This document shows positions 3,134 through 62,577 of a DNA stretch of 64,000 nt, piece after piece (position 1 is the first letter of the stretch; every line of letters begins with the position of its first letter). The notes beneath the pieces are model-generated. The model did no database searches. It worked only from the letters and a program-made list of their open reading frames with translations, and was not told the origin of the DNA. The position numbers and the translations under genes are program-made. The stretch is from a virus (Duplodnaviria; Heunggongvirae; Uroviricota; Caudoviricetes), in IMG/VR virus record IMGVR_UViG_2571042445_000002; one strand, written 5' to 3'.

Positions 3134-3296
3134 CGATCATTTTATCCTCCATGATTATTAATGAATGTCATAATGATAGCGCACCGTTGCACCGTGCGCA
3201 AGTGCATATTGTAACAATTCCCCTCCTCCATCCAAAATCACAATCTCCCGAAAATCTTCCTTTCGATACCTGATAAATCGACCTTTGAGGACGCTT

Positions 3297-5836: not shown

Positions 5837-6510
5837 AACGCAGAGCGCAAATCGTAGGGACCAAACACCCTGCCGGACTTATGCGAGCGCAGGTCCGCAT
5901 ACTGCCTGACTGGAACGGTGTACCGGATGAAGACCTCCCATGGGCAGAGTATCAAATGCCTATCGGTAACGCCTTTACACCTACAGTCAGCGGCGATTTA
6001 GTCTGGGTCGAATTTCCTTATCTGGATGCTAAAGGCAGGATAGACACGCGCCGACCTTTAATCGTTGGTGCGGCGCAGGATGCCCCAGGAGGCGTACCAA
6101 ATGTGCCTCCGGAAGCCTCCGGACAAGGAAGTGCATGGTCGCCAGAAGAAGTTGATGGTGCCCCTGCCCGCCCCCAGTTTTCGGCGACTGAAGATTTTGT
6201 TATTCACCGAAACAATATCCTTGAGGTCAGAACGGCTGGCGGTGGCTATGAAATAGCAAACACCGCCGCAGGATCAAGGATAGGGATGAACGAATCCGGC
6301 CAGATTTACATAATCGGCCCGGCGAATATAGTGCTTAATGCTGGAGGTGAGGTTAACGTCAAATCAAGCAGCAAAACCAATGTATCCTCAGATGGAGACG
6401 TTAATGTAAAAGGCAGCAATGTAACCGTCGCAGCTGATGGTGATATAGCCCTGAAAGCTGGTGGCGCGCTAAAAGCAACAGCGAGCAATTTCTCCTTTGT
6501 GAAGGGATAG
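5833..6510 (+). CDS. baseplate central spike protein (gpV/Mu gp45-like)
   Basis: N-terminal OB-fold-like segment (PWAEYQMPIGNAFTPTVSGDLVWVEFPYLD) and C-terminal beta-helix-like G/V/N-rich repeats (NVKSSSKTNVSSDGDVNVKGSNVTVAADGDIALKAGG). Confidence 0.5.
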   Translation: MKRRAQIVGTKHPAGLMRAQVRILPDWNGVPDEDLPWAEYQMPIGNAFTPTVSGDLVWVEFPYLDAKGRIDTRRPLIVGAAQDAPGGVPNVPPEASGQGSAWSPEEVDGAPARPQFSATEDFVIHRNNILEVRTAGGGYEIANTAAGSRIGMNESGQIYIIGPANIVLNAGGEVNVKSSSKTNVSSDGDVNVKGSNVTVAADGDIALKAGGALKATASNFSFVKG

Positions 6511-6516
6511 CAAAAT

Positions 6517-6564
6517 GCAAAACTGTGTTAGATAATTGAGTTTTGTTTTCTAACACAGTTTTGC
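6517..6564. promoter_or_regulatory. perfect 15-bp inverted repeat (GCAAAACTGTGTTAG ... CTAACACAGTTTTGC) containing the dispersed TGTTAGA/TCTAACA operator-like motif
   Basis: Arms at 6517-6531 and 6550-6564, 18-bp spacer; ends 5 bp before the rdgC start. Confidence 0.5.
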
Positions 6565-6569
6565 TAAAC

Positions 6570-7475
6570 ATGAGATTAGTCGCCTTTAAAAACATATACG
6601 TCTATCGCCTTGCCCGCGAAATAAAACTGGACTCAACCACCGTTAGTGATGCCTTAAGCCAATTCACATTCACTCCATGCGCATCACAAGAAATGGCAAA
6701 AGTCGGATGGGTGCCGGTTCTGGCTGACAACCTGATCCATGAATACCACGGTTTTCTACTTCTCCAGCAACAGCGAGAAATTAAGCTCCTGCCCTCTCAT
6801 GTCATTAAGGAGGAAGTGCAGAAAAAAGTGGAAAAGCTCGAAAATGAGCAATCTCGTAAGCTGAAGAAGTCGGAAAAAAACACCCTGAAGGATGAAGTTC
6901 TCCACTCTTTGTTGCCTCGCGCATTCACTCGCAAATCATTGTCGCGAATCCTTATTGATCGCGACAACTATCTGGTCTTCGTAGAAGCTTCCAGCGCCAG
7001 AAAAGCTGAAGAAATGCTGGCGCTCTTACGTAAATCACTTGGCAGCCTGCCAGTGATTCCATTCACGCCGATAGAACCGCTCGAAATGACTATGACCGAA
7101 TGGTTCAAGTCAACATTTCCTCAAGGCTTTAAAGCAGGCGAAGAAGCCATATTGAAATCTCTGTTCGATGACGGCGGCGCAGTTCGTTGCAAGAAAGTAG
7201 ACCTACAGTCAGAGGAAATAATGACTCATATTGAAGCCGGAAAAGTTGCAACAACAGTTGCAATCAACTGGCAGGACCGCGCGACCTTCAGGTTAAACGA
7301 TGACATGAGCATCAAAGCACTGACGTTTTGCGATGATCTCTATGACCAGAACGATGACATCGACCGTGAAGATGTTGCCCAGCGATTTGATGCTGACTTC
7401 ATTCTGTTCACAAGCGAATTATCCGCGATGTTTAGCTCGCTGGTGGAGGCCATTGGCGGTGAAGCAGAGCATTAA
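6570..7475 (+). CDS. rdgC: recombination-associated protein RdgC
   Basis: N-terminus MRLVAFKNIYVYRL, internal LKKSEKNTLKDEVLHSLLPRAF and DIDREDVAQRFDADFIL, C-terminus GGEAEH closely parallel E. coli RdgC as recalled; no obvious SD. Confidence 0.8.
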   Translation: MRLVAFKNIYVYRLAREIKLDSTTVSDALSQFTFTPCASQEMAKVGWVPVLADNLIHEYHGFLLLQQQREIKLLPSHVIKEEVQKKVEKLENEQSRKLKKSEKNTLKDEVLHSLLPRAFTRKSLSRILIDRDNYLVFVEASSARKAEEMLALLRKSLGSLPVIPFTPIEPLEMTMTEWFKSTFPQGFKAGEEAILKSLFDDGGAVRCKKVDLQSEEIMTHIEAGKVATTVAINWQDRATFRLNDDMSIKALTFCDDLYDQNDDIDREDVAQRFDADFILFTSELSAMFSSLVEAIGGEAEH

Positions 7476-7491
7476 TAACCGACCGCTGGCG

Positions 7492-8139
7492 GTGAGTCTT
7501 TGTGATTATACAGGGAATATGGTTTCCCCCTGGCTGGAACACGGCATTGATGCAGTCATTGTCGATCCGCAACACCAGGAGTCCGGCAGCCAATTGATGG
7601 AGTCAGGTGCTGTACTCACACGTATCAGCGCAATTATTGACAGTGATGAGGTCTACAATTTCCTTCGGAAAAATTTGCACAGAGTTGTATTTTTAGCCGG
7701 TTTCCCTCCGTGTACTGACCTGGCTGTATCTGGCGCACGCTGGTTCGCAGATAAAGCGAAAAAAGATCCGGTTTTCCAGTTCAAAGCAATGCAGGTTGTC
7801 TGGCAGTGTTACGACATTGCAAAGATGATTGGTTGCCCGTACATGATTGAAAACCCGGTCAGCCAAATATCGACATTCTGGCGTAAACCTGATCACATAT
7901 TCCATCCTTATCACTTCACTGCATATTGCAAGGAAGACAATTACACCAAAAAAACATGCCTGTGGAGCGGACAAGGATTCATCATGCCAACTCCGCGAAT
8001 CGACGAGTCGTTAGGTGATCCAGACAACCGAATACACAAGGCACCGCCAGGACCTGAAAGAGCGAATTTTCGTAGCGCGACACCTTACGGTTTTGCAAGA
8101 GCTGTATTTGAAGCAAATAAGGAGGGAATCCGTGGCTGA
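7492..8139 (+). CDS. short C5-cytosine DNA methyltransferase-like protein (start uncertain: GTG 7492 or ATG 7519)
   Basis: Motif GFPPCTDLAVSGARW resembles C5-MTase PCQ motif IV; MIENPV resembles ENV motif VI; N-terminal SAM motif degenerate; only ~215 aa. Confidence 0.45.
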   Translation: MSLCDYTGNMVSPWLEHGIDAVIVDPQHQESGSQLMESGAVLTRISAIIDSDEVYNFLRKNLHRVVFLAGFPPCTDLAVSGARWFADKAKKDPVFQFKAMQVVWQCYDIAKMIGCPYMIENPVSQISTFWRKPDHIFHPYHFTAYCKEDNYTKKTCLWSGQGFIMPTPRIDESLGDPDNRIHKAPPGPERANFRSATPYGFARAVFEANKEGIRG

Positions 8140-9049
8140 TATTGGTGCTAAATTTATTTCTTATAGCGACAATCATCGTCCTGCGGCGGAAGCCACTATC
8201 AGCCATATGCGACGTATTCGCTCGGAGGACGAATTTGATCGCCCCGTCTTTAAGTGGGTCGGCGGCAAATTTTCTGCACTGCCCATTATCTTCGAACACC
8301 TGCCCCACGGAAAACGGTTGATAGAACCTTTCGTTGGAGGTGGCGCTGTTTTCACTAATGCCGGATTTAAAAGCAACCTGCTGAACGATATCAATAATGA
8401 CCTGATTAACTTCTATCAGACATTGCAGCGTGAAGGGCATTCTCTTATCACACTGGCATATCGTTTTTTTCAGGATTACAACTCTGCTGATGCATTTTTG
8501 AATGTTCGCAATGCATTCAACAATGGTGCTTATGATTCCCTTCACCATGCAGCGGCGTTCCTGTATCTCAATCGTCATTGTTTTAATGGCGTCACTCGCT
8601 ATAACCGTAAAGGAGAGTTCAACGTCGGATATGGAAAGCAGAAATCCCCCCACTTCCCTCTCGCGGAAATGGAGGCGTTCCTGGCTGACGATATTTCAAA
8701 GTATTCGGAATTTGTGTCCGGCGATTTTGCTGGTGTAATTGAGGCTGCAGGGAATGATGATGTGATTTTCTGCGATCCCCCCTATGAACCATTGCCCGAC
8801 ACTACCGGATTTACAAATTACTCAGGGCATAGCTTTAGGTTTGAAGATCAACAACGGCTGGTGTCACTGCTGGTGGATGCCCACAGACGCGGAGCGAAAA
8901 TTGTGATAACAAACAGTGGTGCGCCTAACATTCGCGAACTTTACGTTGGCAATGGCTTCAAGGTGTATCCTATGCCATCCCGTCGCTCTGTATCCTGTAA
9001 AGCATCAACCCGAATGATAGCTAACGACATTATAGCCACGCTCAATTAA
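8132..9049 (+). CDS. dam: DNA adenine methyltransferase (Dam family, GATC-type)
   Basis: FKWVGGK...EPFVGGGAVF (motif I) and DPPY (motif IV) in Dam order; GTG start at 8132 preceded by AAGGAGGG; alternative ATG at 8207; overlaps previous gene by 8 nt. Confidence 0.8.
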   Translation: MADIGAKFISYSDNHRPAAEATISHMRRIRSEDEFDRPVFKWVGGKFSALPIIFEHLPHGKRLIEPFVGGGAVFTNAGFKSNLLNDINNDLINFYQTLQREGHSLITLAYRFFQDYNSADAFLNVRNAFNNGAYDSLHHAAAFLYLNRHCFNGVTRYNRKGEFNVGYGKQKSPHFPLAEMEAFLADDISKYSEFVSGDFAGVIEAAGNDDVIFCDPPYEPLPDTTGFTNYSGHSFRFEDQQRLVSLLVDAHRRGAKIVITNSGAPNIRELYVGNGFKVYPMPSRRSVSCKASTRMIANDIIATLN

Positions 9050-9051
9050 GA

Positions 9052-9074
9052 AAAGCCCCATATGGGGCTTTATA
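9052..9074. terminator. hairpin AAAGCCCCA-TAT-GGGGCTTT downstream of dam
   Basis: 8-bp GC stem, short U-tract. Confidence 0.45.
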
Positions 9075-9094
9075 ACATCAAATAAACGCCATTA

Positions 9095-9180
9095 CGGTAC
9101 ACTAATAACACCATTCTGGTACTAAAAAGGCATCAAGGTAGTATCAAAATACCACATGGAACCAAAACGGTGTTATTCCG
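9095..9180. repeat. centromere-like repeats downstream of the ParA/ParG-like operon
   Basis: AACACCATTCTGGTACTAAAAAGG and inverted CCAAAACGGTGTT; near-identical copy AACACCGTTTTGGTACTAAAAGAA at 10300-10323 on the other side of the operon. Confidence 0.45.
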
Positions 9181-9183
9181 GCG

Positions 9184-9471
9184 TCATTTTGTATCCTCAG
9201 ACTCTGCAAGCATGAGGATAGCATGGCGGATCATATTCAATTTGCTGCGATTATGCTTTTTGCTTAACGCATCAAGTACCTGGTACTCGTATTCATTGAA
9301 GCCAACACGAATGGATTTAAAATCACGTGGGGCGTCCTTATCGAGCACTTTGTTGTCTTCTGGTTGCTCACCCGGCACCAAATCAGCCTTACTGGCAAAA
9401 TCCTCAATTCGGCGTTCAAGATCGGGGTCTTTTACTTCGGGGGCTTTTACCGATTTACGAGGCTTAATCAC
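9184..9471 (-). CDS. small partition protein, ParG-like (candidate centromere-binding protein)
   Basis: 95-aa ORF overlapping the parA stop by 8 nt; basic N-terminus, C-terminal helical segment; size and position typical of type Ib ParB/ParG. Confidence 0.45.
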   Translation of the reverse strand: MIKPRKSVKAPEVKDPDLERRIEDFASKADLVPGEQPEDNKVLDKDAPRDFKSIRVGFNEYEYQVLDALSKKHNRSKLNMIRHAILMLAESEDTK

Positions 9472-14219: not shown

Positions 14220-14599
14220 GCATTTTTCAGCTCCGGAATATCAGCCATTTCCACTAACTTCCGAAGCCCCGCGCTGACCTTCCCATTACCAACCGCAGCA
14301 AGCCAATCCCTTACTGACTTCGGCATATAAAGAGTGGTGGTTACAGGATCTTCCACTCTTACAGGTGTGCCCATTTGAGGCCACTTAACAGATGCCAAAA
14401 CGTCAGAAGGCGGGGTAAGCGCGGGAACATCAAGAATAGCCTTTCCTGAATGCAGAATCACGACTCGTTCAGCCAGGGAAAGAATATCTCTTTCGGTAAG
14501 AATTGATGACAGTTGAGCTTCTACAAGGCATCTGCTGCTTGTATTCAGAGAATGGCTTTTAGCACCATTTTTGTATGAAACGAAGATCTTGTACGCCAT
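14207..14599 (-). CDS. hypothetical protein
   Basis: 130-aa ORF; its upstream region 14600-14758 is AT-rich and carries operator-like motifs. Confidence 0.4.
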   Translation of the reverse strand: MAYKIFVSYKNGAKSHSLNTSSRCLVEAQLSSILTERDILSLAERVVILHSGKAILDVPALTPPSDVLASVKWPQMGTPVRVEDPVTTTLYMPKSVRDWLAAVGNGKVSAGLRKLVEMADIPELKNAWRQ

Positions 14600-14602
14600 T
14601 TG

Positions 14603-14680
14603 TTCTAATGTTATGTGTTAGAAAATTAAGATTAAAACACACCATGACGATTTTGTTAAAGAAAATTATTTTTCTAATGC
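14603..14680. promoter_or_regulatory. divergent control region with three copies of TTCTAAT/TGTTAGAAAATTAA operator-like motif and TTGACT -35-like hexamer
   Basis: GTTCTAAT 14603-14610, TGTGTTAGAAAATTAA 14616-14631, TTTTTCTAATGC 14669-14680, TTGACT 14684-14689. Confidence 0.45.
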
Positions 14681-16597: not shown

Positions 16598-16876
16598 ATG
16601 GCTGATATTCAGGTAACTATTACCCCACCAAATGCGACAGATAAAACTTTCACTGTCGAATCCGATCATCCGGAAATTGTGAGAGTTGATGGAACCACAT
16701 GCACCGCAGTATCTGCTGGTACTGCGGTACTAACCATCAAAACTACAGATGGAAATAAAACCGCAACGTGCACTGTAACGGTTAATGAAGCCGCAGTAAG
16801 TGTCGACTCTGTCAGCGTTGATCCGTCAACCAAAGAAGTGACGGTAGGTGACAGCTTCACGGTCGGCGAAGCCTGA
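16598..16876 (+). CDS. bacterial Ig-like (Big_2-type) domain protein
   Basis: ITPPNATDKTFTVESDHPEIVRVDGTTCTAVSAGTAVLTIKTTDGNKTATCTVTV is a typical Big_2 pattern; SD GGAGG 5 nt upstream of ATG 16598. Confidence 0.5.
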   Translation: MADIQVTITPPNATDKTFTVESDHPEIVRVDGTTCTAVSAGTAVLTIKTTDGNKTATCTVTVNEAAVSVDSVSVDPSTKEVTVGDSFTVGEA

Positions 16877-16880
16877 TAAA

Positions 16881-16906
16881 AGTCTCCCCATGCAAATGGG
16901 GAGACT
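16881..16906 (+). other. 10-bp perfect hairpin (AGTCTCCCCA-TGCAAA-TGGGGAGACT) between Ig-like gene and sheath gene
   Basis: Perfect stem; no clear U-tract, so terminator function uncertain. Confidence 0.4.
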
Positions 16907-16941
16907 TCTCTCATCCGCTCGATAAAGAGGAAAAGAGCAGC

Positions 16942-22098: not shown

Positions 22099-22330
22099 AA
22101 TGTTGACTATAGGCGAAATGGCTTACAACTAATGTTGACTGTACTCGATCCCGATCACAAAACATTGACTACACGCGACAAGAAATGAGAAAAGATTGAC
22201 TATAAGCGACAAATACTCAATGAAATAGCTGGTTTATCCATTGATCATGTGAAAAAGCTAATAACTAAATCCGCCAGCGTCAATGTTTGTCGCGTATAGT
22301 CAACGCTTAGAATCGCACACAGTCAATGTT
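22099..22330. repeat. incA-like iteron cluster downstream of repA (iterons in both orientations)
   Basis: TTGACTATAGGCG 22103, TTGACTGTACTCG 22135, TTGACTACACGCG 22166, TTGACTATAAGCG 22196; inverted CGCGTATAGTCAACG 22291, CGCACACAGTCAATG 22315. Confidence 0.55.
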
Positions 22331-23213
22331 ATGGATTTCGTTTATGGATCTGGAAACCTATTTTCCGACCATTCTTTATCTCTGAAAATTTAAGATATTC
22401 AACAGCTTCTAAGTCTTTCATGGCTTTACGAATCACACTGTTCTGAACGCTAACCGAGGACTTGAGGTTCAATCTGGCGCGAAGGCGCTCAATACTCACT
22501 GGCGCAGGGTTTGAAGGTAACGCTTCGAAAAACGTATAAAGCACCTTGGCTGTCTCTTTCCTGCCAAGTTTATCGAGCATTTTGAGCTTCAATATTCGCT
22601 TATAGTCAACGTAGTACAACTCAGACAACTGCTTCTGCGGTTGGATTCTTATAATGTCATTTTCAGTATCAAGTTCACTAAATGCCAATAAATTCATCTG
22701 GATATAACGAACATGTTCTTTGCTGGTGGGCAAGTTGAACTTCAGCAACGTCTGCTGAATACGCGTTAGAGAGTCGCCAATGCTCTTGCGAAAAGCCTTG
22801 GACAGCCGCTTCCTTGGATAACCGCAACGATCCACAAATTCAGAGAATGTTAGGGTGATCACACCATCATTGTCTGGTTTATAGTCAAACAATGCAGATG
22901 TAATGCCTATCCAAACCTTAAAATCAGTATCCATATCCAGGCGTGGCCCATGAATCTCAATACCCTGATACCCTTCCTGCTCTACAATCTTCAGGCTGGA
23001 CAGTTCTTCTGTCGCATCAGTTGAGTTAGTTAAACCGGCGTTCTTGCGACGTAAAGCAACACTGGTAGATTTCAATGTGGGAACAAACACCCCAAGCCGC
23101 AACAAAGCTATCGGCTGAATAGTGCTATTATTGTTAGGCTTTAAGCTGTGGATTTCTCCGGTATTCCCTGATATTTCCTCAACGTTCAGAAAGCCTTTTT
23201 TGTCATCTACCAT
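22329..23213 (-). CDS. repA: plasmid replication initiator RepA (P1 RepA-like)
   Basis: TIQPIALLRLGVFVP, HGPRLDMDTDFKVWIGI and C-terminal RLRARLNLKSSVSVQNSVIRKAMKDLEAVEYL parallel P1 RepA as recalled; flanked by iterons. Confidence 0.8.
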   Translation of the reverse strand: MVDDKKGFLNVEEISGNTGEIHSLKPNNNSTIQPIALLRLGVFVPTLKSTSVALRRKNAGLTNSTDATEELSSLKIVEQEGYQGIEIHGPRLDMDTDFKVWIGITSALFDYKPDNDGVITLTFSEFVDRCGYPRKRLSKAFRKSIGDSLTRIQQTLLKFNLPTSKEHVRYIQMNLLAFSELDTENDIIRIQPQKQLSELYYVDYKRILKLKMLDKLGRKETAKVLYTFFEALPSNPAPVSIERLRARLNLKSSVSVQNSVIRKAMKDLEAVEYLKFSEIKNGRKIGFQIHKRNP

Positions 23214-23505: not shown

Positions 23506-23575
23506 TAGGTTAAAGTCAAAATCACACACTCCCTATCCTCCAGCCAAACGAGTACCGACTTTTCTGGAGGAATCC

Positions 23576-30974: not shown

Positions 30975-31090
30975 CAAACCAGGCCCCACCAACCTGGGTG
31001 GGGCCATTTCTCAAAACAAAAGACCACTGGAAATCACAAACTGAACATACTGCCCTTCGATTTATTGCTTGTTAAAGGGGCTATGTTCGT

Positions 31091-35575: not shown

Positions 35576-35963
35576 GAGTGCTTTTGTGACCTTTTTTAGT
35601 AATACAATCCTTTGGTACAAAAAAGCCGCCGTCCAGTCAATGACGGCGGGCAAAATGAACACTCAGTTAGTGGTATCTGAGAGGGGGGCATTATATTCAC
35701 TGAATGACGCTTGTGAAGACTCACATGTCATCATTTTGTCCTCAAGAATCAGCTCACATCTTGCGCATTCAAGCGTATTTCTCTTTAAAGCCGTGTTTGG
35801 ACCATTTTGTTGATACGCGAATTTGGCATCCTCCACGCTCTGAGTGACGAGGTTTACGGACCACCGGGCCATCATATGCATCCATTTTGTGTGAATGGCA
35901 TTTAGTCGGGAAATAACAAACTGGATAAGTTGAAGCCGCGTTAAACGTCATTTCTGGAGGGGT

Positions 35964-39657: not shown

Positions 39658-39748
39658 AAGAGAGGGGCAGAATGCCCCTTTCTTCTTAAAATAGTCACCG
39701 AAATAACACACTTTTTACACTGCCTTTTTTACAGAAAGGTGGTTAATT

Positions 39749-41976: not shown

Positions 41977-42122
41977 AACTTCCTTGTTTGGTGGTTGCGT
42001 TTTTGGAAAAGCATTTCCGCATATGGAAAAACATCAGCATATGGTGAAAACAACGAAAAATTACTGATGAAATCACACACTGGATAAGCTGCCACGAAAT
42101 CGGAAACCTTTTGCGGTGAATC

Positions 42123-44820: not shown

Positions 44821-44945
44821 GCTAAAAGCTAGCTTAATTTTCTAACACAGTGTGTTTTTATACACTGTTGATCCGACGGCACGTGATCGAGTAGGATCGC
44901 GGTCACTGCTCCGGTAGCGACTGCCAAAAAAAGCAAAAGCCGCTG

Positions 44946-46036: not shown

Positions 46037-46081
46037 TGTATGTTAGAAAATTAAATTGATGTTTCTAATCAAGAATGTATG
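46037..46081. promoter_or_regulatory. operator-like inverted motif TGTTAGAAAATTAAATTGATGTTTCTAAT
   Basis: Half-sites TGTTAGAAA and TTTCTAAT in inverted orientation; additional TTTCTAATG at 46131. Confidence 0.5.
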
Positions 46082-46399
46082 ATTTATATCGTCACTAAAA
46101 AACAGCATCTGATAAAAATTCTGTTGATCTTTCTAATGTTCAGGCTTATATTCATGCCGTCGTAGCAAATTCTGCGACCGGGTTTAGCAGCCTGAATGTT
46201 AGTGCGGACAACCGCAGATATCCGATATTGCGGTATTTTTGTGTCCGTAAAACCGCGTTACGCCCAAATTATGGTGGGGCGTGATGGGGAGGCTTCGGCC
46301 TGCTGGTTTCACTAACGCCAGTCTGCTAACCCCGTCACGTCCTGCCACCTGTTTAGCAGCGGGTAGCAGGTTGTTAAACCTGTTAGTGAGGCCGTAACT

Positions 46400-48736: not shown

Positions 48737-48848
48737 TCCCCTTTTGAGTAAGAACCTTCGGGGTGTGATTCTGCGAAATTAACACACTCCATACCCTCTC
48801 AAACCGTACCGCTTAAGGCGGATTTAACGGTTTTGAGGGGGGCTTCCT

Positions 48849-57684: not shown

Positions 57685-58893
57685 ATGAGTCAGCAAGTAG
57701 AATCATCAAGCCTGGAGATCATCTCAACCGCAATTGAAACGCTGCGGACACAAATCGCGCTTATACAGAAACGAAATCCGGGCGATGACCTGTCAAAGCG
57801 ACTGCATGAGAGCGTCATTGCCACTACAGATAACCTGGTGGCGGAAATCAACCAGCTCCTTGATGATGGGGCAGTTGATTACAATAAGCTGGTGGATCAG
57901 TTTGAGGAATATCAGCAAGCCGTTAATGATGGCTTGATCCGTTTTTCTCAAGTCACTGGTGTATCAGCGACAGTTGAAAGCCTGGGGGATGCAGTTAATC
58001 AATTTGCCGCGAATATGCGTAATGAGATCGGCAATCTGGAGGCGCGTCTTGAGCAGGCAAATACACTGCGCAAATCTGCTGAAGTCGATTTGAGTCGTTA
58101 CAAAAAAGACTATCCGCCAAGCCTGACAAAACGACTGGATGTTGCGGAGAAAGATAACCGCACGCTGAAAAGAGAGCGTCGGGAACTAAAAGAGCGTTTA
58201 ACCAAGCTAAATCAGCAATGCGTTGAGTATCAAGGCGAACTCGTCACACTGCGTAAAAAGTTAGCAGCGGCGCAGAGCATTATTGAAACATTGAAACGAG
58301 AGTGCTCAGAGCTTGGTCATGATCTGAATCGCGCCTGTGGCATGGGGCAAAGGCCAGAGACATTCCCGCTAATGTATGACGGAAGAGAAGCTATTGCCTA
58401 TATCCATGAGTTTCCGCATGGTCTGGTCGCGGAGACTGGGCAACGTGGCGAAGCGTTGCTGACGGCAAATTACCATCAGCAAATCAGAACCAGCCGCCTG
58501 CTGACGATGGATGTGATCCCGTCAGTATGGGGAACGCCGCTTTACTACCGAATTCCTGGCTTCGAAACTGACTGGAATACCGACATAGACGAATGTCTGG
58601 CAGATAAAATTATGGCGTACCTTGAAACGGATTTTCCACGCTTGCATCGCCGGATTATGGACTCTAAGGATGCACCGATCGACGAATTGAAAATGCGTCC
58701 AGAGACGTTGGAGGCAATCAAGCAGACTGAGTTTGATACAGTGTTCAGTGTGGCCTGCATTCCAAGCAGCTTTCATGAAAGCATTCCGTTCATGCAGGGC
58801 GATCGCCGTCAGGAAATAATTGATGCTTGCCGGGTATGGGCGAACGAGTGGGATAAGAAGAACGGTGGAGTTGAAAATCTTTACGGGAAATAA
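57685..58893 (+). CDS. hypothetical protein with N-terminal coiled-coil
   Basis: 402 aa; SD AAAGGGAAC. Confidence 0.45.
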   Translation: MSQQVESSSLEIISTAIETLRTQIALIQKRNPGDDLSKRLHESVIATTDNLVAEINQLLDDGAVDYNKLVDQFEEYQQAVNDGLIRFSQVTGVSATVESLGDAVNQFAANMRNEIGNLEARLEQANTLRKSAEVDLSRYKKDYPPSLTKRLDVAEKDNRTLKRERRELKERLTKLNQQCVEYQGELVTLRKKLAAAQSIIETLKRECSELGHDLNRACGMGQRPETFPLMYDGREAIAYIHEFPHGLVAETGQRGEALLTANYHQQIRTSRLLTMDVIPSVWGTPLYYRIPGFETDWNTDIDECLADKIMAYLETDFPRLHRRIMDSKDAPIDELKMRPETLEAIKQTEFDTVFSVACIPSSFHESIPFMQGDRRQEIIDACRVWANEWDKKNGGVENLYGK

Positions 58894-58930
58894 TGTATTA
58901 GAAAATTAAAATTGTTTTTCTAACATATTG
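58893..58930. promoter_or_regulatory. operator-like palindrome ATGTATTAGAAAATTAAAATTGTTTTTCTAACATATTG
   Basis: Half-sites ATTAGAAAA and TTTTCTAAC inverted around AATTAAAATTG; second copy AGTGTTAGAAAGTAAATTTT at 59044-59063. Confidence 0.5.
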
Positions 58931-58981
58931 ATTATGTAGTTAACTTAACATAGAATTTTTCGTGCTGGTGGGGAGCTTCCC

Positions 58982-59044
58982 ATGTCGCTTGCGGGTTTGA
59001 TAGTCACTTCATTGTCTTTCCCCACCAGCATCAAACAATTTTAA
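58982..59044 (+). CDS. 20-codon hydrophobic small ORF (MSLAGLIVTSLSFPTSIKQF) enclosed by an 11-bp hairpin; candidate type I toxin-like peptide
   Basis: Stem 58964-58974 / 59019-29 sequesters the GGGGAG SD-like element; not in ORF track (below 60 aa). Confidence 0.25.
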   Translation: MSLAGLIVTSLSFPTSIKQF

Positions 59045-59553
59045 GTGTTAGAAAGTAAATTTTAAGGTAAGGGAAAGCTCCGGCACCGTGCAAATACATG
59101 CCCGGCAGGTTTAGTGCGTAAAGTGGTTTCAGCGAGAGCATTTTACGGAGTAAACGACAGTGACTTGAGCCACGGAAGGTCTTTTTATGGTGTTCATTGA
59201 TGATGATCTGGCAGTGAGTATGTTAAGTGGGCCAGGCTGCATCGGGTCATCATCAGTGCACATCCTCAACGTTAAGGAGGCGCAGAGTTGGGTTTTCCTC
59301 TTATTTTGCTGACTCTGAGTCTCCTTAACGTTGCGGTAATGCACCTATGCGGATGTGGCCTTGCATTGTGTCTTGAAAGAATGGGGTAAGGCCGGGGATA
59401 TCCTCAGGGGGAGGCACCCCCGCTGCAACGAACAGCCACAGACGGCAGTCGAGTGATGGAAACGTGCAAAGACTTTAAACCTCGTTACGGCTGGCGTGGC
59501 AAACGCGACAACCGAGACAGAGCGGTGACGGGCGGAGAGAGAGCCGCTTCAAG

Positions 59554-59628
59554 ATAAAAGCCGACTATGGATTCCTTTCTGCGGGCCTTTGAAAGTGAAT
59601 CTTGCTCAGGCAGTCGGCTTTTATGTTG
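59554..59628 (+). terminator. hairpin ATAAAAGCCGACT ... AGTCGGCTTTTAT (13-bp stem, large loop) with U-tract
   Basis: Perfect 13-bp complementarity 59554-59566 / 59612-59624. Confidence 0.4.
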
Positions 59629-59776: not shown

Positions 59777-60238
59777 TCAGTGTTTTCGTCATGGTTAGCG
59801 ACTTTGCGGCGGTTTAGAACCCGACCATTAAAGTAAATGCAAACGATGATCTGATGATGGTAGCGGCCTAAGAAGCCTGACGCCACGGGGTATGAGTCGT
59901 CCCCCGTCAAAAAATCGACCGCAGAGTGTCCCCGTCTGTGTATTAGGGAACGGGGAGGCATAACAGGCAAGGGCGCTGGTGTGATTAACCAGATGAATGA
60001 GAAGGGTCAGGTCTTTCTGGTCAGCGCCCTTACCTGTTACGTCCCTCCCGCGTAACAGCCATTGGTTAATGGCTTTCTGGGATAATGTCTTGTAACGGGT
60101 ATATCCCGTCATGCTGAAGGCGCTAATCACGCTGGAAGCCAGGGTTATGCATCCCCTGTTACCGAATTGCAGCCAGGGCGCGGTGCGCCGAAAAGCATAC
60201 GGAGGTGGAAGCCCTCGCCGGAGACGTACCCGGCAAGT

Positions 60239-60313
60239 GATGGTGTAGCTCAGTGGTAGAGCAGTTGGCTGTTAACCAACTGGTCGGTGGTTCGAATCCA
60301 CTCACCATCGCCA
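60239..60313 (+). tRNA. tRNA-Asn (anticodon GTT)
   Basis: Cloverleaf parsed manually: acceptor GATGGTG/CACCATC, D-arm GCTC-AGTGGTA-GAGC, anticodon loop CTGTTAA, T-loop TTCGAAT, 3' CCA encoded. Confidence 0.8.
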
Positions 60314-60315
60314 AT

Positions 60316-60391
60316 GCCGGTTTAGCTCAGTTGGTAGAGCGCCTGCCTTGTAAGCAGGATGTCAGCGGTTCGAGTCCGTTAACCGGCACCA
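60316..60391 (+). tRNA. tRNA-Thr (anticodon TGT)
   Basis: Acceptor GCCGGTT/AACCGGC, anticodon stem CCTGC/GCAGG with loop CTTGTAA, T-loop TTCGAGT, CCA encoded; 2 nt after tRNA-Asn. Confidence 0.8.
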
Positions 60392-60392
60392 A

Positions 60393-60479
60393 CACAACAG
60401 GTAAGGGTATTTTGCGACGTCGGAGATCGCCGAGCTTGGCAGAGGGTTCGAATCCCTACGAAGTACCCTTACCGTTGTG
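60393..60479 (+). other. tRNA-like element: canonical T-loop (GGTTCGAATCC) and D-arm-like hairpin enclosed by a 16-17 bp inverted repeat; lacks anticodon arm (pseudo-tRNA or structured RNA)
   Basis: IR CACAACAGGTAAGGGTA 60393-60409 / TACCCTTACCGTTGTG 60464-60479; cannot be folded into a full cloverleaf. Confidence 0.3.
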
Positions 60480-60579
60480 ATGAATGCACAGGCTGATGTG
60501 CCGCAACTACAGTAGTGCGCGCTTTGCGGGGCTTGCTACAACCCTGTGTCGGAGTTCAGCACCGACCATCACAATCACT

Positions 60580-60666
60580 GGAGAGTAGGGAGCATGGTGC
60601 TCAAGCGGTCTTGAAAACCGTCCCATTGCGCAAGCGATGATGGTTCGATTCCATTACTCTCCGCCA
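60580..60666 (+). tRNA. atypical tRNA-like gene, possibly tRNA-Ser(TGA) with long variable arm and unusual D-arm
   Basis: Acceptor GGAGAGT/ACTCTCC + G + CCA; anticodon arm GCGGT-CTTGAAA-ACCGT; T-arm GATGG-TTCGATT-CCATT; D-arm atypical (5-bp stem, 3-nt loop). Confidence 0.35.
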
Positions 60667-60922
60667 GCGCAACGTTAAGAGTATTTGGCTAATTAAGCGA
60701 ATGCCGGAAGCAGAACCGGATCACCAAATGCTCTTACCATTGCGGTGAATGCGGCTAAGCGCACGCGGAACAGTTAAAACAGTAAAGGTGGTCTTTTTAC
60801 TGGCGTAACGAGAATCCATAAGTGATCCGGCGTTAATTGTTAACTGGTTAACGTCACCGGGAGGCACCCGGCACCGCAACCTAACAGCAATGGCGTTTTG
60901 TCTTAAAAGGTGGCTGCAAGTG

Positions 60923-61051
60923 ATGGATTTTTGGGCGTTTGCCGATAAAAACCCGGAGTGGACATTATTGTTTCTGCTGGTGGTTGCATACGGGGTAGAG
61001 CAAGCGGCAAAAGCCTTACGCGGTTCTGGCAAAAAGCGTAAGCGTAATTAA
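60923..61051 (+). CDS. 42-aa small membrane protein candidate (MDFWAFADKNPEWTLLFLLVVAYGVEQAAKALRGSGKKRKRN)
   Basis: Single hydrophobic helix plus basic C-terminus; SD AAGGTGG; located between tRNA-like genes; below ORF-track size cutoff. Confidence 0.3.
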   Translation: MDFWAFADKNPEWTLLFLLVVAYGVEQAAKALRGSGKKRKRN

Positions 61052-61060
61052 CAGTAATCT

Positions 61061-61136
61061 GGCCCTTTAGCTCAGTGGTTAGAGCGGGCGACTCATAATC
61101 GCACGGTCACCGGTTCAAGTCCGGTAGGGGCCACCA
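61061..61136 (+). tRNA. tRNA with CAT anticodon, ileX-like (tRNA-Ile2/lysidine type or elongator Met)
   Basis: GGCCCTTTAGCTCAGTGGTTAGAGCGGGCGACTCATAATCGC...GGTTCAAGTCCGGTAGGGGCCACCA closely resembles E. coli ileX as recalled. Confidence 0.8.
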
Positions 61137-61588
61137 CATTTGGTTGTAACACGGCGTATGGCACATGCGTCGTTAGCGGTCTGGTGTAGCTGTTAGGTAC
61201 CTTTTACTAACACTGCATGGGCACACCAGGTAGCCGGAATGTGCAAGCCCCGTTCATAGCGTCGGACTGCGGATTCACCATCCTGGCGATTCGGTGTGAC
61301 AGCCGGAAGAGCACGGCGTACAACAGGAAAAGGCGTTTAATTAGCGTGAGCGCCGTTTCCGTTGTGGTAATTGCGGCTATGCGCTCGTGACGAAGCCATT
61401 TTCATTCACTACGTTCTGATAAGTGTCGTCGCCGGGCGTGGCTAACCTGGCAGGTGGAGGCACCACCGCCACAACTCCTTTCAATTCATCATATAGCCGC
61501 TCAGGCTGTAACCCTTAATTAATACGAAGTTACGACGTCACTACCGGTTCAGCCGGGGGATAGTCGCGCGTGTAAAAAAGGAGACGTT

Positions 61589-62164: not shown

Positions 62165-62544
62165 TGTACGAGGCTACTAAATTACGCACTGAGGATGCGA
62201 TGCACATTGGTTGGGACATCATCACCTGCAAGATAACATCATGCAAGGCTACACGCACAGACGCCGGACACAAGAGCACAATATCAGGTTATGTCGTGAT
62301 GTCAGTCAGGAGTGTGCGCATACGCTTCAGATGGAAAGCCTGCCAGGTTACATCATCAATGCCGCTTACCGTCGAGCAGGATTATTTATGCTTACCCGAA
62401 ATAGACGGAGCGTTGCTGGTGGGCAATAGTGGTCGAAAAGCCGATTTTGAAGCCAGTCTGAAGATGGCGCAGGCGGTGATCAACAAACATAAAGGGAAGT
62501 GGGAGGCAAAAGTTAAGCATGTTGTTCGTTTATCCCGCTGGTAG
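62161..62544 (+). CDS. hypothetical protein
   Basis: 127-aa ORF overlapping previous stop. Confidence 0.35.
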   Translation: MMYEATKLRTEDAMHIGWDIITCKITSCKATRTDAGHKSTISGYVVMSVRSVRIRFRWKACQVTSSMPLTVEQDYLCLPEIDGALLVGNSGRKADFEASLKMAQAVINKHKGKWEAKVKHVVRLSRW

Positions 62545-62577
62545 TGTTAGCAAATTGATATTAATTTTCTAATACAT
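62543..62577. promoter_or_regulatory. operator-like motif AGTGTTAGCAAATTGATATTAATTTTCTAATACAT
   Basis: Inverted half-sites GTTAGCAAA / TTTTCTAAT; TTTTCTAATACAT resembles the P1 C1 operator core (CTCTAATAAAT) as recalled. Confidence 0.5.

Follow-up and report, generated by a model that had tools for sequence, protein, structure and literature searches.

Identity of the gene and its protein

The stretch of viral DNA analysed here, referred to below as the window (64,000 nucleotides), carries at 6570-7475 on the + strand a gene for an RdgC-family protein of 301 amino acids. The gene corresponds to hrdC of phage P1 and orf65 of phage D6, and is called hrdC here. Its open reading frame occupies 6543-7475; the start which aligns with RdgC is the ATG at 6570, and the stop is at 7475. 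A preliminary description of the sequence had taken the product to be a full-length RdgC. The matches to Pfam RdgC (PF04381, E=1e-100, 337 bits against a cut-off of 25, model positions 3-298 of 298), to the NCBIfam equivalog NF001462 (375.6 bits, above the cut-off of 330) and to the E. coli RdgC structure 2OWL (E=1e-104) all support this, and PHROG 724 is matched with E=1e-119.

HrdC is 77% identical to the D6 orf65 product and 52% identical to P1 HrdC. Alignment with host RdgC, which had been proposed as a check, gave 57% identity to the chromosomal E. coli protein over its full length. Nine of the ten RdgC residues defined by mutagenesis (PMC2965237) are kept in the 2OWL alignment. In E. coli RdgC the fingertip residues R97, K98, K100 and K101 are required for loading onto circular DNA, and the dimer interface consists of a gate (R118/F120) and a horseshoe (Q212/E218/H222/K227) (PMC2965237). 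The basic fingertip is retained in the window protein as RKLKK, as are five of the six interface residues (R118, F120, E218, H222 and K227); the exception is Q212, which is replaced by V. The window gene also differs from the chromosomal one in lying on a plasmid-phage, under predicted repressor control.

Operon context and distribution

Homologues of the P1 genes 5, 6, 24 and 7 lie upstream of hrdC, with the baseplate gene 5 adjoining it, and a dcm-like gene followed by a dam gene lies downstream, so the reported position between baseplate and methylase genes is correct. The second gene (7459-8139, +) encodes a DNA methyltransferase 84% identical to the product of D6 orf64, which is annotated as a putative cytosine methylase. 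The gene starts at a GTG codon with GGAGG 9 nt upstream and shares its first 17 nt with the end of hrdC. It matches PHROG 757 'DNA methyltransferase' (E=3e-78), and searches of Pfam and NCBIfam gave no match. The third gene (8207-9049, +) encodes a Dam-family N6-adenine methyltransferase (Pfam PF02086, E=2e-53), which scores 232 bits against TIGR00571 (cut-off 115; model positions 2-265 of 267) when started at ATG 8207; its start codon is uncertain, the reading frame being open from 8015. A terminator-type hairpin, AAAGCCCC-ATAT-GGGGCTTT (9052-9071), closes the operon, and a parA-like operon converges on it from the opposite side.

In D6 (MF356679) orf65-orf64-orf63 have the same gene order and the same place, after the P1-gene-5 homologue orf66; glnS follows dam in D6 and not in the window. 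In three other phages whose RdgC neighbourhoods were inspected, the gene lies among early or replication functions (integrase, exonuclease, SSB) with no methylase linkage, and the RdgC-methylase link therefore appears specific to P1 and D6.

The window belongs to a D6-like phage-plasmid with a complete set of morphogenesis genes. The 3.3 kb that was tested is identical to the E. coli plasmid NZ_CP104667.1, in which the gene is annotated as rdgC. Megablast of the gene against 5,426 complete E. coli genomes gave 71 matches, at 74-100% nucleotide identity, in 70 genomes; all are on plasmids and none is chromosomal, which agrees with the phage-plasmid origin originally proposed. A protein search of genome contigs returned a single, unrelated MAG locus at 40% identity.

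The preliminary description had named a host-derived passenger as the finding that would overturn it. A host-derived rdgC with no role in the element might be argued from the identity to E. coli RdgC, to which the protein is no more distant than to P1 HrdC, and from the non-essentiality of hrdC in P1 (PMC10695390). Against it stand the 71 of 71 plasmid-borne matches, a dN/dS of 0.05-0.13 between lineages that have reached saturation at synonymous sites, and the conservation of the hrdC control region. D6-like elements keep the gene in the same position and translationally overlapping the methylase gene, and the hrdC-dmt linkage is kept in P1. A recent transfer from the host does not fit the plasmid-only distribution, the low dN/dS and the synteny in D6 and P1, and we consider the passenger explanation extremely improbable.

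The inverted repeat and the start region

Between gene 5 and hrdC lies an inverted repeat (6517-6564), the longest at close range in the 64-kb window. Its left arm, GCAAAACTGTGTTAGA (6517-6532), pairs perfectly with 6549-6564, and when extended to 19 bp the arms are 95% complementary and are separated by 10 nt. The perfect repeat described earlier is thus real, but it is 16 bp long and not 15. Its reported distance from the gene holds, as the repeat ends at 6564, 5 nt before the ATG at 6570. The absence of a Shine-Dalgarno sequence is also correct for this lineage, the best anti-SD duplex at the hrdC start (+0.8 kcal/mol) being the weakest of 33 starts tested (median -6.9). The D6 lineage has GGUGA at this position (-7.4 kcal/mol), partly within the stem. 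The D6 locus has the same inverted repeat and operator cores as the window but a different outer stem, CCATT/AATGG(TG) compared to GCAAAAC/GTTTTGC.

Of 27 related loci in IMG/VR, 26 retain the repeat; the exception is L027, in which the left arm has decayed. A search of IMG/VR with the exact repeat pattern returned the same 26 hrdC loci and nothing else, which suggests that the precise architecture is specific to hrdC. A metagenome scan with the looser pattern TTAGATAAT-N10-TTTCTAA gave at least 120 loci, and none of the 120 listed encodes RdgC or gene 5. These are chance matches, and L079, for example, is an unrelated high-GC locus.

From the 27 IMG/VR loci, D6 and the window, 15 distinct sequence variants were drawn. 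The outer stem covaries between lineages, with six pairs changed on both sides and a covariation score of 0.246 compared to 0.089 for shuffles (0 of 500). The repeat folds into a predicted hairpin of -29.9 kcal/mol (z=-4.4). Opening of the region from -15 to +13 is calculated to cost 18-21 kcal/mol in RNA that reads through from upstream, against 5-7 kcal/mol in RNA started internally. A search of Rfam at the gathering threshold found no match at the repeat.

A dispersed motif and the C1 repressor

Both arms of the repeat are strong copies of a 19-bp motif, A-N2-TTAATTTTCTAACACA, which is dispersed through the window. The preliminary description had noted a dispersed motif in the repeat, and counting shows the motif to be real: TTCTAAYAYA occurs nine times against 0.54 expected, and none of 100 shuffles reached nine. 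In D6, 15 sites match the motif core with at most one mismatch; two of these were judged chance matches and excluded from a position weight matrix (PWM) built from 25 sites of the window and D6. Shuffled windows contain 0-2 sites of at least 12 bits, and the window contains eleven of at least 22 bits. The consensus holds no information 3' of ACACA.

At hrdC the left copy, AACTCAATTATCTAACACA (6524-6542, - strand), scores 24.8 bits and the right copy, AGTTTTGTTTTCTAACACA (6539-6557, + strand), which falls in the predicted 5' leader, scores 26.2 bits. They are divergent and overlap by 4 bp, with the geometry TTAGA-N16-TCTAA. The right copy is conserved in all 27 loci, including L027. A second bivalent site at 58894-58927 (30.6 and 24.4 bits), between pmgS and the tRNA operon (tRNA genes at 60239-61136), has the same geometry, ie divergent with cores 24 bp apart, but no extended palindrome. 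A third pair of this geometry at 62543-62576 (17.4 and 28.9 bits) lies upstream of a TTGACA hexamer and lpa (62652). Single copies are found ahead of repL (44831-44849, +), ahead of c4 (an antisense RNA), icd and the antirepressor gene (46039-46057, -), and in the region from which the orf52 homologue and gene 23 diverge (14614-14632, -). In D6 there are additional copies upstream of c1 and ref, and beside cre.

The c4-icd-ant genes of P1 are under C1 control. P1 C1 binds 22 dispersed, asymmetric 17-bp operators (PMC8546580); repL, kilA and ref are under its control (PMC8546580, PMC4713147), and dmt is induced along with other C1-controlled genes (PMC4713147). Copies of the motif are found ahead of hrdC/dmt, the tRNA operon, lpa and c1, whose P1 counterparts have C1 operators annotated in the P1 record (Odmt, Obanab, Olpa and Oc1). 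In the parent plasmid the gene for a C1 homologue (WP_029701835.1) lies 1.2 kb past the end of the window, at record positions 58547-59584, and a copy of the operator is found 20 bp upstream of it. The protein shares 80% identity with D6 C1 (orf1), which in turn is 21% identical to P1 C1 over 240 amino acids (E=2e-8). The P1 operator consensus ATTGCTCTAATAAATTT has no match in the window at up to three mismatches, and its overlap with the D6-type motif is confined to a (C/T)TCTAA(T/C) core. This suggests an operator specificity different from that of P1 (heteroimmune), as expected at 21% repressor identity. Since the similarity between the P1 and D6-type operator sequences is too weak, the case for operators rests on their position. 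The description of the inverted repeat as operator-like is upheld by the strength of both arms as motif copies and by the occurrence of the motif at counterparts of C1-controlled operons, and the phage C1 repressor most probably has two binding sites in the repeat.

The late-promoter box

The tail and baseplate operon which runs into the inverted repeat (genes 7-24-6-5) is headed by a late-promoter-type box, AAATCACAATCT, at 3235-3246 (+), upstream of gene 7. The pattern AAWYMACAMWCT has seven matches in the window against 0.31 expected, all on the + strand and all upstream of late operons (those of g7, pmgB, R, lydA, ddrB, prt and darB). It was derived from six of the seven sites, the match at ddrB being independent. 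Searches for P1-like late boxes (TGTGAC and similar) were uninformative, and the box came from direct inspection of the upstream regions.

A candidate promoter enclosed by the proposed operator pair

The candidate -35 hexamer, TAGCAA (6508-6513, +), overlaps the TAG stop codon of gene 5, and the candidate -10 hexamer, GATAAT (6531-6536, +), lies inside the left operator copy. They are 17 bp apart in the window and in L027; D6 has TAGAAA and a spacing of 18 bp. The columns TAG-AAA are invariant across the 15 variants. GATAAT is likewise invariant in 15 of 15, including L027 with its decayed left arm, and its T departs both from the operator consensus and from the complementarity of the hairpin. 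The proposed -35 is weak (3/6), and a strict sigma-70 scan of 6300-6700 found no promoter in the intergenic region. The scan region also holds TTTACA-16-TATAGT (6305-6332) within gene 5, a chance-level match which was rejected. We infer from the sequence that TAGCAA-17-GATAAT is a promoter enclosed by the bivalent operator.

On balance we think it probable that the locus is the early, C1-controlled hrdC-dcm-dam operon of a D6-like phage-plasmid of the P1 family, and that the repeat is a bivalent operator enclosing its promoter. Transcription would start near 6543. In the lysogenic plasmid state C1 bound to the left copy would cover the -10, C1 bound to the right copy would cover the early leader, and the operon would be off; on infection or induction it would fire, and HrdC would be made together with two methyltransferases which modify the phage DNA. 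The early leader of approximately 27 nt would lack the left arm and be unstructured, with no Shine-Dalgarno sequence. Transcripts reading through from the late tail operon would contain both arms and could form a hairpin of 16-19 bp ending 5 nt before the AUG, in which case translation of hrdC is expected to be blocked. Because of that expected block, the repeat may also insulate the early gene from late read-through. The hairpin is missing from L027, and neither of the other two bivalent sites extends into a palindrome, so an RNA function, if real, would be specific to the lineage. The operator model does not demand the covariation of the outer stem, which templated (quasi-palindrome) mutation could produce.

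Other readings of the repeat and the motif

The repeat could be primarily an RNA or DNA hairpin at the boundary between operons, its resemblance to the motif being secondary. It might then act as a terminator or 3'-end stabiliser of the late gene 7-5 transcript, or as an intrinsic terminator on the minus strand, where the conserved A-tract upstream of the left arm would supply a U-tract. The fold is stable, the repeat begins 7 nt past the gene 5 stop codon, the outer stem covaries (including changes that are G-U compatible on the + strand), and the A-tract directly 5' of the left arm (GCAAAAT, GAAAAT or GAAAAAAT) is conserved. However, the + strand has no U-tract (its 3' flank is UAAACAUG) and a terminator scan of 6300-6700 was negative; with an AU-rich stem, a loop of 10-16 nt and a U-tract on the - strand only, the repeat does not resemble a Rho-independent terminator. 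Transcription of the minus strand from the parA-like operon would already be stopped by the hairpin at 9052-9071. Both arms are strong PWM matches, their spacing recurs at two sites which have no extended palindrome, and in L027 the hairpin is lost although GATAAT and the right operator copy are retained. A repeat that is mainly a hairpin is in our judgement distinctly unlikely. Somewhat less doubtful, but still rather unlikely, is that only the operator cores are functional and that the outer stem is a by-product of template switching, which homogenises the arms of a quasi-palindrome. Such correction of quasi-palindromes is well established as a source of mutations in E. coli; here the arms change together between lineages, and the outer flank is uninformative in the operator PWM. 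Homogenisation cannot have gone unopposed, since the one mismatch within the stem, where the T of GATAAT faces another T, is invariant in 15 of 15 variants. The other two bivalent operators have not been homogenised, and the single-sided changes mostly keep G-U compatibility on the + strand (approximately five cells against three mismatches outside L027, numbers too small to be decisive).

The motif itself could be read as an Lpa-dependent late promoter, which would make hrdC a late gene. A P1 late promoter consists of a 9-bp -22 box followed, after a gap of 4 nt, by a -10 hexamer, the geometry annotated for P1 LPpac. When the motif is read in the TGTG orientation, six of 11 sites have TAAnnT exactly 4 nt after TGTGTTAGA, as in LPpac, and there are copies before gene 23, pmgS and pmgM. 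Yet copies also precede early or immunity functions that in P1 are controlled by C1 (c1, repL, ref, c4-icd-ant and lpa itself), and no copy of at least 12 bits precedes g7, g22, pmgB, R, lydA, prt, darB or pacA. Seven late operons carry a different box instead, AAATCACACACT followed by TAnnCT and restricted to the + strand, and the operator motif, absent from such operons, does not belong with the P1-type Lpa late promoters. We regard a late hrdC as very improbable.

Comparison with P1 and lambdoid phages

The early C1-controlled operon favoured here has a close counterpart in P1. In uhr-hrdC-dmt (GenBank AF234172) an RdgC-family gene lies directly upstream of a DNA methyltransferase gene, as in the window, and the operon is early and C1-controlled, with a copy of the dispersed operator, Odmt (Op68), at its promoter Pdmt (PMC4713147); the record annotates the two as overlapping. 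In contrast to the window, the P1 operon is served by a single monovalent operator, which lies upstream of the -35, and hrdC is preceded there by an additional gene, uhr; one fused protein, Dmt, takes the place of the two methyltransferases of the window, and the operon does not lie behind the baseplate operon. P1 also contains inverted pairs of the asymmetric operator which embrace a promoter, Obanab (Op72ab) and Oc1ab (Op99ab), like the pairs in the window, one of which precedes the tRNA operon as Obanab does in P1. The P1 pairs are convergent, overlapping by 6 bp with the TCTAA cores facing inward over a 28-bp span, whereas in the window the cores face outward, 24 bp apart, over a 34-bp span, and only the hrdC pair is extended to a palindrome of 16-19 bp.

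The rdgC gene behind an operator is the D6-lineage version of the P1 C1-controlled hrdC-dmt operon and not a new acquisition; it is real and largely ordinary. The novelty implied in the preliminary description does not stand, as P1 hrdC and D6 orf65 are already annotated in GenBank and the P1 operon is annotated as controlled by a C1 operator. The details that look to be new are the covariation of the outer stem and the predicted hairpin masking the start codon on read-through late transcripts.

Lambda RexA and the RdgC homologues of lambdoid phages are likewise phage-encoded, with an RdgC-like fold and non-specific DNA binding (PMC11077077, PMC12315714). Those genes adjoin cI, and their expression in lysogens is believed to come from the repressor transcript; for the window hrdC, silence in lysogens is predicted from its position behind a repressor operator.

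Possible function

By analogy with E. coli RdgC, HrdC would be a ring-shaped dimer which binds double-stranded DNA non-specifically and restrains RecA, inhibiting both strand exchange by RecA and cleavage of LexA. An effect on host recombination or SOS, as first suggested, is inferred only from the biochemistry of the E. coli protein. In P1, hrdC was non-essential in a CRISPRi screen and is dispensable for lytic growth (PMC10695390), and the literature searched yielded no phage RdgC homologue with a demonstrated function. A more speculative proposal, to which we give little credence, combines a dual use of the repeat, as C1 operator and as a hairpin silencing read-through, with an early operon that serves as a DNA-protection module. 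HrdC would then be made in the early window only and, together with the two methylases, would shield the replicating phage-plasmid DNA from RecA filaments. Such shielding might protect it from the RecA-dependent nuclease Ref of the element itself, from SOS signalling, or from host defences triggered by RecA.

The working definition of a D6-type C1 operator and of a late-promoter box should allow the early and late regulons to be read from sequence in approximately 100 phage-plasmids of clinical E. coli and Salmonella. The hrdC repeat also offers a testable case of a repressor operator extended to an RNA hairpin, which could uncouple an early gene from the late operon upstream. A tightly regulated hrdC in a tractable E. 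coli system is a reasonable place to ask what phages gain from RdgC, homologues of which are present in more than 300 phage genomes.

Identity, element and operon of hrdC

The open reading frame spans 6543-7475, and its sensible start is the ATG at 6570, giving MRLVAFKNIYVYRL, which aligns with MLWFKNLMVYRL of the E. coli protein. The 301-aa product, HrdC (named after the RdgC homologue of P1), is RdgC along its full length, as the preliminary description had it. It matches Pfam PF04381 (E = 1e-100, model positions 3-298 of 298) and PHROG 724, passes the NCBIfam equivalog NF001462 with 375.6 bits against a cut-off of 330, and aligns at E = 1e-104 with 2OWL, the structure of the E. coli protein. 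Identity is 77% to orf65 of phage D6 (MF356679), 57% to E. coli RdgC and 52% to P1 HrdC. Ten RdgC residues were probed by mutagenesis by Briggs et al. (fingertip R97/K98/K100/K101, gate R118/F120, horseshoe Q212/E218/H222/K227; PMC2965237); in the 2OWL alignment nine are kept, the exception being Q212, which is V. Between D6-like lineages synonymous sites are saturated (dS at least 1.8) and the dN/dS of hrdC is 0.05-0.13. Judged by these rates and the residues kept, hrdC is a maintained gene and not the host-derived passenger considered beforehand.

Over the 3.3 kb around hrdC, identity is 100% to NZ_CP104667.1, an E. coli plasmid of 91,750 bp, and 74% to D6. When D6 proteins are mapped by tblastn, the window is collinear with that phage throughout (tail, baseplate, head, lysis, dar, repL, c4/icd/ant, lpa and pacA blocks). 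The gene was present in 70 of 5,426 complete E. coli genomes, plasmid-borne every time. It is named rdgC by PGAP in the parent plasmid, orf65 is annotated in D6 as 'RdgC family, similar to P1 gene hrdC', and the P1 record (AF234172) places hrdC between uhr and dmt. Given these annotations, and homologues in 315 of 50,697 phage records, a phage-borne RdgC is not new. Novelty is low, C1 control of hrdC-dmt also standing in the P1 record; what the analysis adds is modest: a consensus for the D6-type operator, a late-promoter box, and the covarying hairpin that extends the operator of hrdC.

Downstream, the homologue of D6 orf64, a methyltransferase gene (PHROG 757), starts at GTG 7459, preceded by GGAGG and overlapping the last 17 nt of hrdC. 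A Dam-family methylase gene comes third, and a terminator-type hairpin (9052-9071) closes the unit. In D6, dam and orf61 are separated by a gene for glutaminyl-tRNA synthetase (59925-61586); the window counterpart (9049-9184) is a 135-bp spacer only, with the hairpin inside it.

The dispersed motif and a probable late-promoter box

The left arm of the repeat before hrdC, GCAAAACTGTGTTAGA (6517-6532), is perfectly complementary to 6549-6564. The preliminary description was right about the repeat and its 5-nt gap to the ATG, and one short on its length, which is 16 bp rather than 15; with one mismatch it extends to 19 bp. The whole (6517-6564) is the longest close-range inverted repeat of the 64-kb window. 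The reported lack of a Shine-Dalgarno sequence also held: no anti-SD complementarity was found in the 20 nt upstream of hrdC, the best duplex (+0.8 kcal/mol) being the weakest of 33 starts tested (median -6.9 kcal/mol). The orf52 homologue (start 14599, minus strand; 14585-14632) is likewise without one (-0.3 kcal/mol), and its start follows an operator copy of matching orientation at 14 nt, an arrangement like that of hrdC.

Both arms do contain the dispersed motif (TTCTAACACA; left-arm version ATCTAACACA), for whose degenerate core, TTCTAAYAYA, the window has 9 matches where 0.54 would be expected. A weight matrix built from 25 window and D6 sites has the consensus A-N2-TTAATTTTCTAACACA, with zero information 3' of ACACA; the hrdC arms score 24.8 and 26.2 bits, and in shuffled windows 0-2 matches reach 12 bits. 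The strongest window sites (at least 22 bits) are found at or between genes. They precede hrdC, repL (site ending at 44849), pmgM, pmgS and lpa, as well as, at 46039-46057, the c4 antisense RNA with icd and ant; two further locations are the intergenic region shared by orf52 and gene 23 and the one between pmgS and the tRNA operon. D6 has extra copies in front of c1 (20 bp away) and ref, and another beside cre. Rfam places a C4 antisense RNA and its a1/b1 target sites at 46146-46198 and 46267-46352, a P1-type immI module between the 46039-46057 copy and icd/antirepressor. The repL copy is followed by a small hairpin, ACAGTGT-N8-ACACTGT (44849-44880), which reuses the operator 3' CACAG and may be due to chance.

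P1 C1 binds 22 dispersed asymmetric 17-bp operators (PMC8546580), and the P1 record annotates operators at dmt (uhr-hrdC-dmt operon), ban (followed by tRNA genes), lpa and c1. This positional correspondence is the main argument for reading the dispersed motif as a D6-type C1 operator. P1 dmt is induced together with other C1-controlled genes (PMC4713147). Just past the window end the parent plasmid encodes a C1 homologue (80% identity to D6 C1), and 20 bp ahead of its start lies a motif copy. The C1 proteins of D6 and P1 are distant homologues (21% identity, E = 2e-8); the P1 operator consensus is absent from the window, and the operator specificity would therefore differ from that of P1.

On the other strand the motif has a layout reminiscent of P1 late promoters, with a 9-bp box, 4 nt and TAnnnT. 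This reading was rejected, however, as the late operons of the window have an element of their own, AAATCACACACT with TAnnCT 3-4 nt further on, and the operator motif is absent from these regions. The element occurs 7 times against 0.31 expected, always on the plus strand and only upstream of late operons: 3235-3246 (g7), 23519-23530 (pmgB), 31031-31042 (R), 35911-35922 (lydA), 39701-39712 (ddrB), 42070-42081 (prt) and 48777-48788 (darB). The pattern was derived from six of the seven sites, the ddrB match being independent. It is probably the D6-type Lpa-dependent late promoter, and since one copy lies at 3235, genes 7-24-6-5 would form a late operon running into the repeat.

Control region of hrdC

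The two 19-bp operator copies (6524-6542, minus; 6539-6557, plus) are divergent, with a 4-bp overlap and cores 24 bp apart, whereas P1 bivalent operators have a 6-bp overlap and inward cores. The same geometry recurs at 58894-58927 before the tRNA operon, an arrangement resembling P1 Obanab and the tRNA genes after it, and, with one weak copy, at 62543-62576 before lpa. The tRNA cluster (60239-61136, plus strand) comprises Asn, Thr, Ser and a CAT-anticodon tRNA. ARAGORN places the three tRNA genes of D6 (7145-7850) on the minus strand, matching the window; their plus-strand listing in GenBank is a probable annotation error.

Control regions from 27 related IMG/VR loci and D6 gave 15 distinct variants. 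The cores, GATAAT (6531-6536), a TAG-AAA 17-18 bp upstream of it, the variable loop's spacing of 8 nt and the distance to the ATG show little or no variation. The T of GATAAT breaks both the operator consensus and the hairpin complementarity, and GATAAT is kept even in a divergent locus (64% protein identity) whose left arm has decayed. From this conservation we propose a promoter, TAGCAA-17-GATAAT, with transcription starting near 6543; a strict sigma-70 scan did not call it. One operator copy would then cover the -10 and the other lie in the early leader.

Only at hrdC does a bivalent operator form a long, perfect palindrome. Beyond the cores, 5-7 bp vary by lineage with complementarity kept: GCAAAAC/GTTTTGC in the window lineage, CCATT/AATGG plus CA/TG across a bulge in D6, and elsewhere CCAAT/ATTGG and TTCAA/TTGGA (one U-G pair). 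Changes on both sides are seen in six pairs, and covariation scores 0.246; shuffles score 0.089 (none of 500 reached the observed value) and slid controls at most 0.09. As RNA the region folds at -29.9 kcal/mol (z = -4.4). Opening -15 to +13 around the AUG would cost 18-21 kcal/mol in a read-through transcript versus 5-7 in one started in the loop; in the D6 lineage a GGUGA Shine-Dalgarno sequence lies inside the right outer arm. It is plausible from this folding that hrdC would stay untranslated on late read-through mRNA, its start masked by the hairpin, and that the operator-controlled internal promoter would supply an open leader. Two other accounts may hold: a boundary or terminator hairpin, against which stands the absence of a U-tract on the plus strand, and neutral homogenisation of a quasi-palindrome, which would explain the extended stem.

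Possible function of HrdC

The E. coli homologue, RdgC, forms a ring-shaped dimer with non-specific DNA-binding activity, and RecA strand exchange, RecA ATPase and LexA cleavage are all inhibited by it (PMC2965237; see the summary in PMC11077077). In the literature searched no demonstrated function was found for a phage homologue. P1 hrdC is non-essential by CRISPRi (PMC10695390); a P1vir preprint reports weaker induction of hrdC and dmt in a Δhfq host than in the wild type, implying that both are induced in the course of infection (10.64898/2025.12.28.696737). The rdgC neighbourhoods examined in three other phages are early or replication regions, with an integrase, exonuclease or SSB gene alongside and no methylase link. 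D6 and P1 also encode the RecA-dependent nuclease Ref (PMC4713147), which may be relevant. The best available inference, a speculative one, casts HrdC as a RecA antagonist that binds DNA and is produced early, along with the phage methylases. The preliminary description stands on RdgC identity and the operator-like repeat, and its role in recombination or SOS stays a suggestion.

Other features of the element

The window lacks a homologue of D6 RepA; the slot between tub and pmgB holds a 294-aa ORF instead (22329-23213, minus strand), probably a different plasmid replication initiator. The PLSDB type of the plasmid is rep_cluster_1704. Of the cin invertase only a 24-aa remnant match was seen (35735-35806), and the tail-fibre region S/S'/U is arranged differently from that of D6; here the invertible segment may have become fixed. 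An 18-bp inverted repeat at 16874-16913 (89% complementary, 4-nt loop), with orf49 on one side and the tail-sheath gene 22 on the other, looks like an intra-operon hairpin or terminator.
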